A DNA stretch of 64,000 nucleotides, taken from positions 4,094 through 68,093 of the forward strand of contig CAVFVD010000009.1 in NCBI GenBank assembly GCA_963625935.1, in the 5' to 3' direction. This document shows positions 13,934 through 19,616 of this stretch, in pieces (positions within the stretch are counted from its first letter, which is position 1; each line of letters starts with the position of its first letter). The notes beneath the pieces are model-generated. The model was not told the DNA's origin and made no database searches. It was given only the letters and a program-made list of their open reading frames with translations. The translations under genes were made by a program, and so were the position numbers. The stretch is from an uncultured Oscillospiraceae bacterium. Its GTDB lineage: Bacteria > Bacteroidota > Bacteroidia > Bacteroidales > Bacteroidaceae.

Positions 13934-16717
13934 TCACCTCATCTTGCCGCCGAACCTCGGCAGCACCTCCGCCGAAAAGCCCGACAAGGTCTCGTCTATG
14001 CAGAGCCAAGTGGTGTACAGCAAGCGGAAATACTTGTACGGCGTGCCGCTGAAGCCGCGCATATAATGCCCCTCCGCCGCCCAAACCGGGTGCCAGTCCC
14101 TGCCGCGCAGGTCGTTCGTCCCGTAAAGCACTTGCTTCTGCTCTCTGCCGTTCGCCTCGTTCCACCCGATGGCGCGGAAATCGCCGCGCTGCGCCAACTC
14201 CGATATGGTCTTGCGCGTGTCGGGCGCGCCGAACTTGAACGGGCGCGTCAAGAGGAACATCCTGCTCTGCGCGTTTATGGGGACATCCCTGTCTTGGTCA
14301 ACGCTCAGGTTAAGCACCACGCCGTCCCTTTTCTGCGCGATACATTCCGGGTAGGAGTTGATGTCAAACAAATACGGGTTGTCGCACATTCCCCAAGAGC
14401 GCGTCCGCAGCGAATACACATAGGCGTACTGGTGTTTTGTGTTGTACACCGTCACGCGCTGGTGCGCGTAGTCGTACATAAGGTTGCAGTCCGTGAGGTA
14501 GTCGGCGAACGCCGCTATTTGGAAGCTGTCCTTGCCGAGGAGCTTGCACGCTCCGGGCATTTCGCCCAAGTCAAGCGTCCCGAAGTTGTCAAGCATTTCG
14601 CTCACGCATTCCACGCTTGACCCGCTGACGTGCATAATGCCGCGCTCCGTGGCGAAAAGCACGCTCCCGTCAAGCTGCGCCACCGCGTCTTGCCCAAGGC
14701 ACACGTCACGCGCGAACGGCTGCTTTGACGAGAAGCCGCCAGTTGACGAGGTCTCCAACGCCCACACGCCGTCCGAACACAAGGCGTATAGCGGGAACTG
14801 TCCGAACTGCCCTTGCGACAACGCCTTTGCAGCCGATGTCACGCTGATGATTTCTCCCGCGCCGATGGTGTTGATGTTCGTCACGGGGAACATAAACGGG
14901 TTGTTCACCTCGGACGTGTACAGCTTGTTCGGGACGCTCATCTCCACGCTTGCGGAAATCACCTCCGGCTCTTGGGTCGTCCCCGGTATCGGCCTGTCCC
15001 CTACGTTCTGCGCTTCGTCCGCCCATCCGTCCATGCGCCCGTGCAGCCCGTCAAAGAAATACGAGCCGTTGAGGAATTTGTGGCGCGTCAGTTTCGCACA
15101 ACGGGAGCGCGTGTGTTGCACGTTGCCGTCCTTGTCCATCATCTCCTCAACCACCATCACTTTCTTCGCGTACGGGCTGTGGTGGTAGAACCACACAAGC
15201 GGAGTGTACCACCCCGCATTCGTCCAAGTGCCGCACTGCACAAGTTGCTCCGCCCCGCCGTCCGGCTCTATCCACACATACACGCTCACGCGGCACGGGT
15301 CGTTGTAATTGTCCGGGGCGTGCAGCGGTGTTTCCGCGCCGCCGTTGTAATGCACGCACCCGTCCGTGTGCGGGAAAAGGCATCGCGCGGACGCGCCCTT
15401 GTATATGCTCTTCTCTATGTTGTAAAGGTTCATCCGCGAGTTGTACGCCACCGCCCCTCTCGGGCGCAGCTCATCGTGGCTGTCGTAGTCGTCCGTCATG
15501 ACCTCGCGGTTCAGCAAAGACTGCAAATAGTCGTCCGCCACATCCACTTCCACCCTCTCGCCCTGCTTCAAGTCGTCAAGGGATATGCTGCTCAAAAGGA
15601 AGAAATTGGATGCTTCCGTAAAGCCCTTTTTCACCTCATCGTCACCCTTCTGCGGAAGCGAGCAATATGTGCCTGTCGGCGCATAAGGTATGTGCCGCGC
15701 GTAAACGACCTCTTGCTTGGTACTCGTGTTGCCGCTCGCGCTTGTCGTCTGCACGAGTGCGGAAGCCCTGTACACGCCGTAGTGCATGCGTTGCGAGTCC
15801 CACCCGTTGGTCAAAGGCTCAACGCGGTTCGTGAACTCGCCGCCTTGGTCATAGTACCTGATGCCCTCGGTGACGAAAATGTCCACGCTCTGCACGATGT
15901 CCGCCCATTCTTTCAGCTTGGCAAGACCGTCTGTAACCTGCATATCCAGTTTCGCCACCACGGCACTTGTGGTGAATGTCAGGAACTGGTAGCCATCGTC
16001 TTTTTTCCTCCACTCCCCCTTGACCATCGGCACGAAGCCCGCGTTCGGTATCATAAGCACGGGCGCGGAGTGCATTGTCAGCGTGCCGTCAAAAAGCCGG
16101 AATGCATAGCGCACAAAGAAAGGGAACATGAATTTCCCTTTCTTCGTAGCGTAATTGGCAATAAACTTGTTCGCAGCCGATTGCGCGGCGAGCTTTCCCT
16201 CGTCTATAACTACCGAAGCAAAGTAAGTGCCTTTGTCATAATATTTATACGGATTTTCCTCTATCTGCTGCTCCACCGTTCCGCGCAGCCCGAACGATAT
16301 GCCCAGCTCCGGCAGATGGCTGCCAAGAGCTTTGTACGCATCGCTCTTCCAAAGGTAGTAGTACGGCTTGTGCGTGGTGTCCTCAATAAAGAGGAGCGTG
16401 TTACCAAGCACCGTGATGCGCCCCGGACCGCCGACTTGCCCTATCACGTTAAGCACCGCCCTGCTCCCGTCCTCCGTTTCCGTCCAGCAAAGCTCAAAAT
16501 TCCCGTTGACGACAATGTAGTGCTTGAATTTCGCGGTCTCGTGCACCGCCAATATTTTGCAGTCGCTGTCTAACCTCATGACGCACTCCCCCTTCAGCAC
16601 GGGGCGCAGCCCGCCAACGTCCGGGACGGCGTTCATGCACACCGACAGCTCGCCGTCCGTGCAGAGCCTGTCGGGCGTGGCGGACGTGACCCCGCCGTAA
16701 CCCACCTCTTGTCTCAT
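13934..16717 (-). CDS. Large hypothetical protein (927 aa), possibly virion-associated
   Basis: Long clean track ORF. I recognise no catalytic motifs. Confidence 0.85.
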   Translation of the reverse strand: MRQEVGYGGVTSATPDRLCTDGELSVCMNAVPDVGGLRPVLKGECVMRLDSDCKILAVHETAKFKHYIVVNGNFELCWTETEDGSRAVLNVIGQVGGPGRITVLGNTLLFIEDTTHKPYYYLWKSDAYKALGSHLPELGISFGLRGTVEQQIEENPYKYYDKGTYFASVVIDEGKLAAQSAANKFIANYATKKGKFMFPFFVRYAFRLFDGTLTMHSAPVLMIPNAGFVPMVKGEWRKKDDGYQFLTFTTSAVVAKLDMQVTDGLAKLKEWADIVQSVDIFVTEGIRYYDQGGEFTNRVEPLTNGWDSQRMHYGVYRASALVQTTSASGNTSTKQEVVYARHIPYAPTGTYCSLPQKGDDEVKKGFTEASNFFLLSSISLDDLKQGERVEVDVADDYLQSLLNREVMTDDYDSHDELRPRGAVAYNSRMNLYNIEKSIYKGASARCLFPHTDGCVHYNGGAETPLHAPDNYNDPCRVSVYVWIEPDGGAEQLVQCGTWTNAGWYTPLVWFYHHSPYAKKVMVVEEMMDKDGNVQHTRSRCAKLTRHKFLNGSYFFDGLHGRMDGWADEAQNVGDRPIPGTTQEPEVISASVEMSVPNKLYTSEVNNPFMFPVTNINTIGAGEIISVTSAAKALSQGQFGQFPLYALCSDGVWALETSSTGGFSSKQPFARDVCLGQDAVAQLDGSVLFATERGIMHVSGSSVECVSEMLDNFGTLDLGEMPGACKLLGKDSFQIAAFADYLTDCNLMYDYAHQRVTVYNTKHQYAYVYSLRTRSWGMCDNPYLFDINSYPECIAQKRDGVVLNLSVDQDRDVPINAQSRMFLLTRPFKFGAPDTRKTISELAQRGDFRAIGWNEANGREQKQVLYGTNDLRGRDWHPVWAAEGHYMRGFSGTPYKYFRLLYTTWLCIDETLSGFSAEVLPRFGGKMR

Positions 16718-16740: not shown

Positions 16741-16956
16741 TCAGTATTCTTTCCGCGAGCGGAACGACACCGTTTCAACGTGCAAAAATGACATTGTCCC
16801 CGCTATCTCGTCCTTATGTTGCTCCGCCTCCTCCTTGGTGCGGAAGATGGTGGCGCAGATTTCCGTCCGCGCCGTGCCTTTGGTCGCTATGATGTTGGCG
16901 TAGTACTTGCGCCCGAGGATGAAAGCGACTATCTCCTCAAATACCGTTGTGTTCAT
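16741..16956 (-). CDS. Hypothetical 71-aa protein
   Basis: ATG at 16956 (MNTTVFEEIVAFILGRKYY...). The track version starts at an upstream GTG. Confidence 0.5.
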   Translation of the reverse strand: MNTTVFEEIVAFILGRKYYANIIATKGTARTEICATIFRTKEEAEQHKDEIAGTMSFLHVETVSFRSRKEY

Positions 16957-16982
16957 TGTTCTCTTGTTTGTTGGTTGTTTGC

Positions 16983-17147
16983 CTACGTCCACACATGCAC
17001 GATGTGCGGCACCGTGTTGCTAAGCCCGTCCGCGCCCTTGAAGCCGCCCATGAACGATGTGACCGCATTGGCTATATCCTTGCGCGGGCGGGCTGAAACT
17101 CCGCCAGTGCCGTCCCGCACCCATCCTATGTAGTGCTTCCTATTCAT
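16983..17147 (-). CDS. Micro-ORF 6 (54 aa)
   Basis: MNRKHYIGWVRDGTGGVSARPRKDIANAVTSFMGGFKGADGLSNTVPHIVHVWT. Its ATG overlaps the preceding stop (TATGAATAG). Below the track length cutoff. Confidence 0.4.
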   Translation of the reverse strand: MNRKHYIGWVRDGTGGVSARPRKDIANAVTSFMGGFKGADGLSNTVPHIVHVWT

Positions 17148-17289
17148 AAGCCACCAGCACTATTGTGTGCTGCCCGTGGTTGTCACGCAGCCCACCCCAA
17201 GCGTCATAGCGCGAGGAGAGTGCCGTGGTGTACAGCTCCCGCGCGTGGAGCTGCATGTACCTTTTCACGAAAGGTGTCTGTCTCTTCAT
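17140..17289 (-). CDS. Micro-ORF 5 (49 aa)
   Basis: MKRQTPFVKRYMQLHARELYTTALSSRYDAWGGLRDNHGQHTIVLVAYE. ATGA overlap with micro-ORF 4. Confidence 0.4.
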   Translation of the reverse strand: MKRQTPFVKRYMQLHARELYTTALSSRYDAWGGLRDNHGQHTIVLVAYE

Positions 17290-17453
17290 AACTCTACTGC
17301 GACATAATAATGGTTTCTTGAACTCACTCCCGCGAGTATCGTGTATATAACGCCCGTCCCGCTCCTGCGGTTGTATGTGTCCACCCACACCGCGTGCGCG
17401 GGGCGGAAGCCGTCAGCGTACATTCGTTCCAGCCTTGCGTTCTTCCTTAGCAT
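17286..17453 (-). CDS. Micro-ORF 4 (55 aa)
   Basis: MLRKNARLERMYADGFRPAHAVWVDTYNRRSGTGVIYTILAGVSSRNHYYVAVEL. Starts two codons after the stop of micro-ORF 3. Confidence 0.4.
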   Translation of the reverse strand: MLRKNARLERMYADGFRPAHAVWVDTYNRRSGTGVIYTILAGVSSRNHYYVAVEL

Positions 17454-17459
17454 ATTCAG

Positions 17460-17582
17460 TCAGTATGTACCCCCCCCGTTGCGCGTTGTGACAGTTTGCG
17501 ACACGCCGCCAACGCCCATCACGTTGCCGTCAAAACCCGCACGCCACACGGGGTAAAAGATGTTGCCAATCTTCTCCGTCAT
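17460..17582 (-). CDS. Micro-ORF 3 (40 aa), ends just after a G8 tract
   Basis: MTEKIGNIFYPVWRAGFDGNVMGVGGVSQTVTTRNGGGTY. ATGA overlap with the G7-frame stop of micro-ORF 2. Confidence 0.4.
   Translation of the reverse strand: MTEKIGNIFYPVWRAGFDGNVMGVGGVSQTVTTRNGGGTY
17470..17477 (-). repeat. G8 homopolymer (C8 on plus strand), tract 3
   Basis: Read directly: AACGGGGGGGGTACATAC on the coding strand. Confidence 0.95.
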
Positions 17583-17729
17583 GCGAACTCCACAATTACG
17601 CAGGTCGCGCTGAAGCCGTCCGCCTTGGTGAAGAGGAAATTCCGCGTCCCCATCTTGAAATACCCCGCCCTGACGGTCTTGCTCGCCCCCCCCTATGGCG
17701 GGGTTTATCACGCTCTTCTTAGTACTCAT
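17579..17729 (-). pseudogene. Micro-ORF 2, out of frame at a G8 tract (in frame with G7 or G10): frameshifted, phase-variable, or a homopolymer assembly error
   Basis: ATG at 17729 gives MSTKKSVINPAIGGG. After the tract, the G/C-third-position frame reads ASKTVRAGYFKMGTRNFLFTKADGFSATCVIVEFA-stop, but it is closed by a TAG just upstream of the tract. Confidence 0.35.
17686..17693 (-). repeat. G8 homopolymer, tract 2
   Basis: Read directly: CCATAGGGGGGGGCGAGC on the coding strand. Confidence 0.95.
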
Positions 17730-17907
17730 ACAAAACAACAGTCATAGGGTAATGCGCCAATGTGAGAATGTTGGTCGCGCCGCAAAACTCGTACCGCGTG
17801 GTGATTGTAGCGGCGCACATTCCGTTCGTCACATTCACCGCCCTCCGCGTACCCCCCCCATTGTCAAGCGGTTGCGGCGGTGCTACGCGTGTCAGTCGGA
17901 AGTACAT
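17719..17907 (-). CDS. Micro-ORF 1 (62 aa), contains a G8 tract and overlaps the methyltransferase stop
   Basis: MYFRLTRVAPPQPLDNGGGTRRAVNVTNGMCAATITTRYEFCGATNILTLAHYPMTVVLYEY. Confidence 0.4.
   Translation of the reverse strand: MYFRLTRVAPPQPLDNGGGTRRAVNVTNGMCAATITTRYEFCGATNILTLAHYPMTVVLYEY
17852..17859 (-). repeat. G8 homopolymer, tract 1
   Basis: Read directly: GACAATGGGGGGGGTACGCGG on the coding strand. Confidence 0.95.
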
Positions 17908-19217
17908 TCCTTGCGGTTTAGGTTGTCGTAGTACTCATAGTGGAAGCCCTCGCCGACTTTCAGCGCGCCGCCCTCCTTGAACCGCGCGTAAGCCAAGCGG
18001 AACTCGCCGTCCATAAGAAGAGACAAAGCCGCCTGCGCTTCCGCCGCAGTCTTGTCCCAAAGCCCGTACCCGCTCATTGCCCTTTGCAGCCACGTTTTGA
18101 GGAACATCGCGTCCTCGTGGCGCGGCGGTATGTCGTATTCCACAAACAGCGCATCGTCCTTGTCGTTCGCTTTGAGGAACTTTTCCACCGCCTTGTCTTT
18201 GAGGAAAAACCGCTCTTCCACGTTGTCCTCCAACACGTCCGCAAGACGTTTGTCAAGCGCAAAAGGCTCGGGGAACTTGTAGTCAAACGCCACATCCTTG
18301 CGCATTGACACGCAGAATACACGGTCCCTGTTCTGCGGCACGCCGTAGTCCTTTGCGTTGAGCTTCGCCCATCTGTTGACGTAGCCGAGACTTTCAAGGC
18401 GTTTCAGCCACAATTGGAAGTCGGGCATGAACTTTGCGCTGACCAGCGCGGCAACGTTCTCTTGCAAAAGGAACTTTGGCTTCAAGGCTTCCACCGCGTC
18501 CGCCACGTTCCAAAGCAAGGCGGAGCGCGTGCCTGCGCCCTCTGCCATTCCCATTTGCTTGCCCGCTTGGCTGATGTCTTGGCACGGCGAGGAATAGGTG
18601 AACAAGTCCACCTCGCGCCCGCCAAGGCTTTCCTTGACCGCGTTCCAGTCTATCTGCGTGATGTCGCCGAGAGCCTTGTCCGCGAACTGCGGGAAAACAA
18701 GGTCGTGCATTTGGCACGCGTACTTGTCTATCTCGCTCCACCCCGCGCACGTCCATTTGAAATCGGGGTGTTTCTCTCGCAGCGCGTCCGCCGCCATCAG
18801 TTGCGAGTCGTAGCCGCTGAACGTGGTGAGGAACACCTTTTCGCCCTTGTTGCCGTCAACGGGCATTGGCGGAAGCGCGTCTTCCGGGTAGAGCGCGTCA
18901 AGCAAGGACATTTGCCCTTGCGGCGCGTTCTCTTTCGGATACCACAGCTGTTCGTAGATAGCCGCAAGCACGTCCACTACGATAGAGTTTCCCGCCATCT
19001 TGTACTGCTGCGAGACGGAAACCGCCAAGTCCCCCTCCTTGCCTTTGCCAACGGGCTTGCAGTCCGCCAGCCTTTCGCGTGCTTGGCGCACGCTGCTCTG
19101 CATAGTGGCTATGACATCGTCCCGCACGCCCATAAGCCGGAAGCACTCTTTTGGCGTGAGCTTGCGCACGGCGTAGCTCTTAATCGTGCGGTCTTTGAAG
19201 TTGATTTTCGTCACCAT
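17892..19217 (-). CDS. DNA (cytosine-5) methyltransferase with permuted motif order (IX-X before I-VIII)
   Basis: RKLTPKECFRLMGV and MAGNSIVVDV lie near the N-terminus. FSGYDSQ, SSPCQDISQAGK, LLQENV and PQNRDRVF follow. Confidence 0.9.
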   Translation of the reverse strand: MVTKINFKDRTIKSYAVRKLTPKECFRLMGVRDDVIATMQSSVRQARERLADCKPVGKGKEGDLAVSVSQQYKMAGNSIVVDVLAAIYEQLWYPKENAPQGQMSLLDALYPEDALPPMPVDGNKGEKVFLTTFSGYDSQLMAADALREKHPDFKWTCAGWSEIDKYACQMHDLVFPQFADKALGDITQIDWNAVKESLGGREVDLFTYSSPCQDISQAGKQMGMAEGAGTRSALLWNVADAVEALKPKFLLQENVAALVSAKFMPDFQLWLKRLESLGYVNRWAKLNAKDYGVPQNRDRVFCVSMRKDVAFDYKFPEPFALDKRLADVLEDNVEERFFLKDKAVEKFLKANDKDDALFVEYDIPPRHEDAMFLKTWLQRAMSGYGLWDKTAAEAQAALSLLMDGEFRLAYARFKEGGALKVGEGFHYEYYDNLNRKECTSD

Positions 19218-19232
19218 AGTTATCCGCCCTTT

Positions 19233-19616
19233 TCATCTCTCGTCCCCCTCTCCGATTATCTTCCCGCGTTCCTTTCGGTCAGCGAGTTTCTCTATGTTGC
19301 GTGCCATCACGTCAGAGAGCTGCACGCCCATCCAGTCCGCGAGATTCGCGCAGAACCACAGCACGTCCCCCAGCTCTTTCACCGCCGCGTCAGAGAACTC
19401 CTTTGGCGTATTGCTGCTCGGCGTAAAGTCCGCGTCAAGCGTGCCGTTGCGCACCGCCTTGGCGAACTTGCCGCAAAGCTCGCCCGTCTCCTCCGCGATG
19501 CCCGCAATGAGGTACGCGGGGTTCTTCGCGTTCTCCGTTATGAATGTGAACGCGTCCTCTTGGTACTTGTCCGCGTCCGCGTAACGCTCTTTTCCTGTCT
19601 GTGTTAAGTTGTTCAT
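19233..19616 (-). CDS. MazG-like nucleoside triphosphate pyrophosphohydrolase
   Basis: EETGELCGKFAKAVRNG...ELGDVLWFCANLADWMGVQLSDVMARNIEKLADR. Confidence 0.8.
   Translation of the reverse strand: MNNLTQTGKERYADADKYQEDAFTFITENAKNPAYLIAGIAEETGELCGKFAKAVRNGTLDADFTPSSNTPKEFSDAAVKELGDVLWFCANLADWMGVQLSDVMARNIEKLADRKERGKIIGEGDER

Follow-up and report, generated by a model that had tools for sequence, protein, structure and literature searches.

A permuted phage C5 cytosine methyltransferase lacking a target-recognition domain, and the coupled micro-genes that may supply one

How does a cytosine methyltransferase find its target sequence when its own chain lacks the part that reads DNA? The question is raised by a 64-kb stretch of DNA (the window: 64,000 nucleotides of contig CAVFVD010000009.1, assembly GCA_963625935.1), where six coupled micro open reading frames (micro-ORFs) lie on the minus strand between the gene of a circularly permuted C5 cytosine methyltransferase and a 927-aa gene. 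In an initial annotation each peptide was thought to resemble a target-recognition domain (TRD) of C5 methyltransferases, and the array was taken for either a bank of trans-acting TRD modules or a decayed multispecific TRD region. The comparison with related phages favours the bank, through a core without TRD, conserved coupled units and the TRD homology of unit families in the relatives; for the units of the window itself the link to TRDs is indirect. The locus probably encodes a split multispecific C5 methyltransferase, composed of a catalytic core and separately translated TRD mini-subunits, some of which would be switched by poly-G slippage.

The 441-aa core contains the conserved catalytic and S-adenosylmethionine motifs of the C5 methyltransferases (TTFSGYDS, SSPCQDIS, LQENV, PQNRDRVF, RKLTPKECFRLMG and AGNSIVVDV). 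The patterns checked were those of motif I (FxGxG-like), IV (PCQ), VI (ENV), VIII (QxRxR), IX (RxLTPxEC) and X (GN(S/A)(I/V)). The enzyme is indeed permuted, as initially annotated: motifs IX-X (residues ~10-93) precede motifs I-VIII (~133-352), which are followed by the proximal variable region and a helical tail. Core residues 10-47 correspond to positions 269-303 of the PF00145 profile (motifs IX-X) and residues 155-352 to positions 22-217 (motifs I-VIII), and the order of the blastp segments agrees with that of Pfam. Profile positions ~217-268 find no match in the 441 residues. A canonical-order C5 methyltransferase is present in Streptococcus phage Javan179 (MK448694.1; L084, 573-1851), where it is annotated as two coding sequences (CDS) 100 nt apart. 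Using blastp, core residues 133-371 align to its CDS1 (42% identity, E 2e-55) and core residues 15-92 to residues 66-120 of its CDS2 (E 2e-12). Residues 1-65 of CDS2, which form a TRD reading '...IGASRGRDPENPNDR..QQRLEINKNGTSNTITSVQKDNYAVEFPD' immediately before motif IX, have nothing equivalent in the core in this comparison, and neither have residues 275-378 of the phi3T enzyme, which hold its TRDs. The core chain begins ~15 residues before motif IX. By these alignments the core is devoid of a TRD, and none is found between motifs VIII and IX of the same chain.

A first possibility would be that the micro-ORFs are simply the broken C-terminus of the methyltransferase. The core has thousands of homologues, and the best 120 of them are nearly all 427-467 aa long and cover 90-100% of the query. 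Because the stop position is kept in these best 120 homologues, the micro-ORFs are not such a remnant and the candidate was rejected. Read-through or frameshifting into one polypeptide was rejected as well, since the frame offsets vary from junction to junction.

The gene status of the units was assessed in relatives, namely five close ones, one distant one and 80 IMG/VR loci, the methyltransferases of which share 63-74% identity with that of the window. The 83 loci analysed comprise the window, L001-L003 and the 80 IMG/VR loci. The search with 14 seed units covered all ATG-initiated ORFs of 28-80 aa of either strand, and also the versions obtained when a G/C run of at least 6 was lengthened or shortened by 1 nt. 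About 600 unit instances were recovered, 3-13 recognised per locus, and they lie beside the orthologous methyltransferase in all 83 loci; the search of relatives that had been suggested for the array was thus positive, with frames under purifying selection. None of the ~600 instances is located on the strand opposite to the methyltransferase. The majority (474) are intact and contain no long tract, while 39 are in frame with a tract and 87 need a 1-nt change at a tract. The ratio of nonsynonymous to synonymous substitution rates (dN/dS) is 0.10-0.46 per family, with values of 0.17 for unit C, 0.18 for unit H and 0.27 for unit K; families A and K are represented by 52 and 56 instances in the related loci. 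Stop and start overlap in 360 of the 448 adjacent pairs (80%), and in 233 of these the overlap is the -8 one of the TATGAaTAG type. Such an overlap also exists between the methyltransferase stop and the first unit downstream of it in 36 loci. A word-indexed protein database searched with an A/B/G profile yielded hundreds of 46-63-aa 'hypothetical proteins' of these families from Caudoviricetes contigs. Recurrence in 83 loci, restriction to one strand, dN/dS and overlapping junctions all mark the units, as far as sequence can tell, as real, conserved and coupled small genes, far beyond chance, and the initial preference for coupled genes over random decay was well placed.

Units also occur upstream of the methyltransferase, although none does so in the window. 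Of the 29 loci with such units, 16 have a gap of 10-11 nt from the stop of the last unit to the ATG of the methyltransferase. Read as sequence, this placement is the canonical order of TRD followed by motif IX, broken only by a stop and a short spacer. Further TRD-like families were noticed upstream of the methyltransferase (L003 4400-6000; L017, L019, L023 and L053), for example '...RRSRTVGGGKLVNALTAVSSGICVFVEL' and '...GSNGEDGGGSFSPALRATDYKCPHCIMIEYD', and these also contain G8-G9 tracts. As the upstream families were not seeded, the unit counts per locus are underestimates.

Which function do the units share? The most direct answer comes from families that accompany those of the window in other arrays. 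A family J unit matches the C5 methyltransferases of Javan179 and three other Streptococcus phages directly before motif IX (56-60% identity, E 3e-9 to 7e-8). A unit of family M aligns within the TRD region of three multispecific enzymes, those of phi3T (at 'LMVGHVDLKGHDAIKRVYSPEGLSPTLTTMGGGHREPKIAE'), SPbeta and H2 (E 2e-3 to 9e-3). When a combined M+F profile was compared with 177,635 PDB sequences, only C5 methyltransferases were returned, at the recognition loops of HhaI (238-257) and MpeI (301-329), each with an E of only ~1; the corresponding search with family J yielded a repeat lectin and nothing else. When an M unit was joined ahead of the N-terminus of the core, the PF00145 match extended to positions 232-302 and gained 5 bits. 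Families J, M and F are, on this sequence evidence, clear TRD homologues, and the segment that is absent from the core appears to occur as a separate unit in the related arrays.

The window families A, B, C, D, H and K are assigned to TRDs indirectly, by array membership, shared architecture and profile links. In related arrays they are interleaved with J, M, F and I units of the same size and the same coupling. A C-terminal motif, [ILV][ILV][ILV]-E-[YF]-[ED], is common to the units and corresponds to the ends of canonical TRDs ('PKIAE' and 'GVAIGEY' in phi3T, 'NYAVEF' in Javan179). Profile-profile comparison with hhalign gave 97.5% for B-G, 94.7% for F-M, 90.5% for A-B, 81% for A-G and 10% for D-M, with H, K and C isolated. 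No conserved methyltransferase motif is detected in the units by Pfam, and motifs IX-X are located in the 441-aa core. Each ~50-codon gene most likely encodes one DNA-reading module.

In the window, all six micro-ORFs were found at the initially reported positions and strand, along with the ORF that follows them (Table 1), and every start/stop junction string quoted for them is present in the sequence. Units A and B overlap by 11 nt and units H and K by 8 nt, while repaired B/D and C/H overlap as ATGA. Between the methyltransferase and the array, no terminator-like site was found on the minus strand. Two units are interrupted in the present sequence. The start codon of unit B and its first 14 codons share a frame that differs from that of the TRD-like part (17579-17692); the latter ends at the ATGA overlap with unit D. 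The peptide SKTVRAGYFKMGTRNFLF, initially listed among the TRD-like peptides, is therefore out of frame with its start codon and requires a 1-nt change in the G8 tract; intact 49-50-aa versions of this unit are present in close relatives (P0164 and P0168). Unit D stops two codons past its tract and is devoid of the C-terminal strand common to all other units, and one extra G would extend it to 17413. Unit C has GGGACGGGC at a position that is G9 in L003.

Table 1. Coordinates of the micro-ORF array, its poly-G tracts and the neighbouring genes in the window
Feature	Position	Strand	Remarks
C5 cytosine methyltransferase core, circularly permuted, 441 aa	17892-19217	-	PF00145, E 2e-52
Unit A	17719-17907	-	62 aa, in frame (ON); start 16 nt within the methyltransferase gene
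Unit B	17579-17729	-	OFF, frameshifted; 49 aa if repaired; ATG at 17729
Unit D	17460-17582	-	40 aa as it stands, truncated
Unit C	17286-17453	-	55 aa, intact, no long tract
Unit H	17140-17289	-	49 aa, intact
Unit K	16983-17147	-	54 aa, intact
Poly-G tract 1, unit A	17852-17859	-	G8 in window; G7 in L001/L002; G9 in L086-088; both alternatives out of frame
Poly-G tract 2, unit B	17686-17693	-	G8 in window and L001/L002 (OFF); G10 in L086-088 (ON)
Poly-G tract 3, unit D	17470-17477	-	G8 in window; interrupted 9-nt GGGAGGGGG (G3AG5) in five close relatives
83-aa ORF (71 aa from ATG) after the array	16741-16992	-	not a TRD-like unit; no family match, no Pfam match
927-aa ORF after the array	13934-16717	-	no Pfam match
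MazG-type nucleotide pyrophosphohydrolase gene	19233-19616	-	PF03819, E 5e-9; directly upstream of methyltransferase

Both interruptions coincide with homopolymers. Only three 8-base homopolymers exist in the whole window, and all of them are coding-strand G8 tracts that lie in a micro-ORF and encode Gly-Gly-Gly. In 1.27 kb, the three strains of the window's phage are separated by 18-54 substitutions, and their indels are found solely at these three tracts. As a result of these differences, unit A is ON in the window only (compared to L001/L002 and L086-088), and unit B in L086-088 only, with a 50-aa gene call there (P0168; L087). Unit D is full length in all five close relatives, with a 56-aa product called as a gene in L001, and truncated in the window. 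The same pattern recurs in other pairs of loci. L052 and L053 display no substitution in 9.3 kb and four indels, all of them in G8, G9, G9 and C8 runs, and L022 and L032 are distinguished by four 1-nt indels, all in G8-9 runs. The density of runs of at least seven G is 1.06 per kb for the units and 0.15 per kb for the remainder of the loci (7-fold), and the runs inspected in this remainder mostly belong to further TRD-like unit families that were not among the seeds. C runs are rare on the methyltransferase strand. Across the loci, 126 units contain a tract of at least 6 bases. As in contingency loci, the homopolymers lie within coding sequence and set its frame, and their length is polymorphic between near-identical genomes. 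No difference, in the tracts or elsewhere, separates L086, L087 and L088, each of which was obtained from its own sample, so that the tract lengths are reproducible and not random assembly noise. The same identity argues that the consensus lengths are stable and that switching is not fast.

Taken as a split enzyme, the locus would work as follows. Each micro-ORF would be translated separately through stop/start coupling into one TRD-sized module of ~50 aa. The module would dock on the core beside motif IX, probably via the conserved hydrophobic C-terminal strand. The core would pair with one TRD peptide at a time and each docked module would confer one recognition sequence, so that one core and many modules would methylate many motifs. 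In several modules, slippage of the G7-G10 tract in the Gly-Gly-Gly loop would turn the single module on or off; in the window, unit A would be on, units B and D off, and units C, H and K fixed on. The phage may in this way be able to vary the DNA sequences that it methylates and escape the restriction enzymes of its host. A variable methylation repertoire would protect phage DNA from Type II restriction and limit its exposure to methylation-dependent restriction. More tentatively, and with somewhat less than even confidence, the proposal can be extended to a new architecture of C5 DNA methylation in a large group of gut-type phages, in which a TRD-less core would be combined with separately translated 50-aa specificity peptides, up to twelve or more in number and individually switched by poly-G tracts, and the resulting combinatorial, phase-variable methylome would serve as bet-hedging between Type II and methyl-dependent restriction.

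Several results weigh against a split, switchable enzyme. The initial claim that each peptide is recognisably TRD-like has no direct support, as the six units of the window gave no match in a Pfam scan at E<=10. Searches of phages with tblastn using window units A, K and C and representatives of the B and D families returned nothing useful, and the PDB profile search with H gave chance-like matches only. The PDB profile search with A/B/G returned one C5 methyltransferase, but the match was at its motif VIII and was rejected as spurious. An exhaustive search with the profile of H (HMMER) brought up small proteins of ~50 aa or half-units only, and no full-length methyltransferase with the module in cis. 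When unit H was fused to the core and modelled with AlphaFold (30-sequence alignment), the mean predicted local distance difference test score (pLDDT) was 64 and that of unit residues 1-43 was ~21-25, which lends no support to docking. We know of no experimental precedent for a 50-aa peptide that forms most of the small domain in trans. The tracts also allow other readings. A/T homopolymers vary between assemblies too (22 cases, versus 46 for G/C runs), and some of the differences in tract length could therefore have technical causes. The observed ON:OFF ratio (39:87) is the 1:2 expected under neutral frame drift and is as compatible with decay of individual units as with switching.

The best of the alternatives retains the trans-acting TRD units and drops the phase variation. 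The G tracts would then be a by-product of Gly-Gly-Gly coding, with length differences caused by ordinary mutations or assembly errors. The variation of A/T homopolymers is in line with this idea, as are the unchanging tracts of one strain in three samples, which speak against fast switching at the consensus level, and the 474 units without a long tract. However, codon usage does not behave as expected for a by-product. Among the Gly codons of long genes GGG is used least (8%), yet 34% of the Gly-Gly pairs of units begin with it, compared to 7% in long genes (5-fold enriched). The 7-fold higher density of G>=7 runs in units, the confinement of all indels among the three strains to the three tracts and the four tract indels without any substitution in 9.3 kb (L052/L053) point the same way. 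Constant, non-switching units are accordingly considered unlikely, though they keep some weight.

The units might also be TRD-derived small proteins with a role of their own, independent of the methyltransferase, for example as sequence-specific DNA binders or as decoys against host restriction or methyl-dependent nucleases. They are conserved small phage proteins without assigned function, phage early regions are generally rich in anti-defence minigenes, and direct TRD similarity went undetected for the six units of the window in Pfam, tblastn and PDB profile searches. What makes this role quite improbable is the strict linkage and translational coupling of the units to a methyltransferase that is missing exactly such a module, in addition to the clear homology of families J, M and F to TRDs. 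A lone 50-aa TRD fragment would, moreover, be unlikely to fold or to bind DNA.

A silent cassette bank is a third option, and a very doubtful one. Here the units would not be used as proteins but as recombination donors that alter a TRD elsewhere, like silent pilin cassettes. The order and content of the units are shuffled among the phages, and the conserved junction sequences could act as recombination sites. Hybrid and fused units exist as well: P0162 (67 aa) joins an A-type first half to a B-type second half, and in P0161 (90 aa) the distal part of unit A and the whole of unit B form a single ORF after loss of the intervening stop. Units evidently do fuse and recombine. No expression site was seen for such a bank, however, and the core contains no TRD to be replaced. 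Each unit retains a start codon, a coupled stop and constraint at the amino-acid level, all of which would be needless in a silent cassette.

It is hardly credible that the array is the functionless wreck of a continuous multi-TRD region, the second proposal of the initial annotation: although frameshifts or truncations affect part of the units (B and D in the window and 87 of ~600 overall), the ON:OFF ratio is the neutral one and the tandem order recalls phi3T/SPR-type enzymes, the 474 intact ORFs have their own ATG and coupled stop/start, dN/dS stays at 0.10-0.46 in phages with methyltransferases that share only 63-74% identity with that of the window, the methyltransferase stop is conserved (at ~435-441 aa in the best 120 homologues of thousands), and the frame breaks are nearly confined to G tracts instead of being random.

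The split multispecific enzyme that is preferred here can be compared with several known systems. Work of the Trautner laboratory is said to have established tandem TRD modules of ~40-50 aa, each giving one specificity. Such tandem TRDs are found in cis in the multispecific C5 methyltransferases of Bacillus phages (SPR, phi3T, rho11s, SPbeta and H2; PMC8936443). Like the system described here, these are phage-encoded orphan enzymes with several tandem modules of ~40-50 aa, which in the present case are putative TRDs; the window has six units and the related loci have 3-13 recognised. The family M unit finds its counterpart in the TRD 'RVYSPEGLSPTLTTMGGGHREPKIAE' of phi3T/SPbeta/H2, and the modules end alike, with a hydrophobic strand ending in ..E-Y. 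The Bacillus phage enzymes hold their TRDs in one polypeptide between motifs VIII and IX, whereas here the modules are encoded by separate ORFs, each with a start and a stop. The core is also permuted, the arrays reach at least 13 recognised units, and some modules contain poly-G tracts.

C5 methyltransferases that are assembled from separate polypeptides, as proposed here, are represented by the two-subunit enzymes M.AquI and M.EcoHK31I and by fragment complementation in the laboratory for several others (PMC3404938, PMC5944983), namely M.BspRI, M.BsuRI, M.HhaI and M.SssI. The split of M.AquI lies within the variable region (PMC3404938). In the two-subunit enzymes there is a single partner, and this second polypeptide contains conserved motifs (IX, or IX-X). 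In the present system, by contrast, the small partner would be a TRD alone, without motifs IX-X or any other conserved motif, and there would be many alternative partners. In Javan179, where the arrangement of two CDS is comparable, CDS1 ends in '...NAVIGRYDAGIRNQQSVGGAVIELIE*', resembling the end of a TRD unit, and CDS2 begins with a J-type TRD followed by motifs IX-X; the gene is possibly divided naturally between two TRDs, or else it is disrupted.

Natural circular permutation is known from M.BssHII, M.Alw26I, M2.Eco31I, M.Esp3I and M2.BsaI, in which motifs IX-X precede I-VIII and the permutation point lies in the variable region (PMC5944983). The motif order of these enzymes is the same as that of the core. 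They retain a TRD in the chain, mostly N-terminal before motif IX, whereas the core has none.

In phase-variable methyltransferases, slippage of homopolymers in the coding sequence sets the frame and hence the methylation repertoire (PMC12707154). Phasevarions (Type III mod, Type I hsdS/hsdM) and the present loci have coding-sequence homopolymers in common, and here the tract alleles differ among close relatives. The phasevarion enzymes are cellular adenine methyltransferases in which a tract switches the whole enzyme or one S subunit. In contrast, the phage C5 enzyme would possess several independently switchable modules, as judged here from consensus genomes only. A separate polypeptide that gives DNA specificity to a methyltransferase is known from Type I HsdS, where M and S are translationally coupled (PMC3510504). 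This is an analogy only, without sequence relationship, as HsdS is a protein of ~400 aa with two TRDs that serves an adenine methyltransferase and the units here are ~50 aa. None of the compared systems joins a TRD-less core, arrays of TRD minigenes and tracts in individual modules, and no description of such a system was found in literature searches.

If the split enzyme is real, a C5 methyltransferase takes its sequence specificity from an exchangeable mini-subunit, a principle so far known in Type I systems and not in C5 enzymes. This would explain the gain and loss of specificities module by module in multispecific phage enzymes. Hundreds of minimal TRDs (~50 aa) paired with one core would be useful for deciphering the C5 recognition code and for the design of programmable cytosine methylases. 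It would also add a phage-side contingency system to the arms race of restriction and anti-restriction. Being short and often frameshifted, the unit genes mostly escape gene callers.

A few observations concern the units in databases. The word-indexed search with the A/B/G profile returned small proteins only and no enzyme with these modules in cis. The only match of the region to GenBank phages at the nucleotide level is 49 nt long and lies inside a methyltransferase gene. In P0131 (84 aa, from a 798-nt ENA contig) and P0134 (179 aa), which are close relatives of window 17140-19217, the N-terminal part of the methyltransferase is joined directly to the distal half of unit H, extending to methyltransferase residue ~86 in P0131 and ~148 in P0134. 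They represent deletions within the phage population or else chimeric assemblies.

Other observations concern the methyltransferase and its surroundings. Its C-terminal ~70 residues (~371-441; window 17895-18107, minus strand) differ in sequence among homologues. In the otherwise poor AlphaFold model, most of this tail is predicted as confident helices with a pLDDT above 90, and it could provide a docking platform for units or a dimerisation element. A subfamily with methyltransferases of 432-433 aa (L022, L027, L035, L037 and others) has a G7 run inside the methyltransferase gene at a constant position, 714 nt before the stop; unlike the unit tracts, no length variation of this run was seen in these genes. 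The 83-aa (or 71-aa) and 927-928-aa ORFs downstream of the array are also present in close relatives, where RecT, YqaJ and SSB genes are found further upstream of the methyltransferase.

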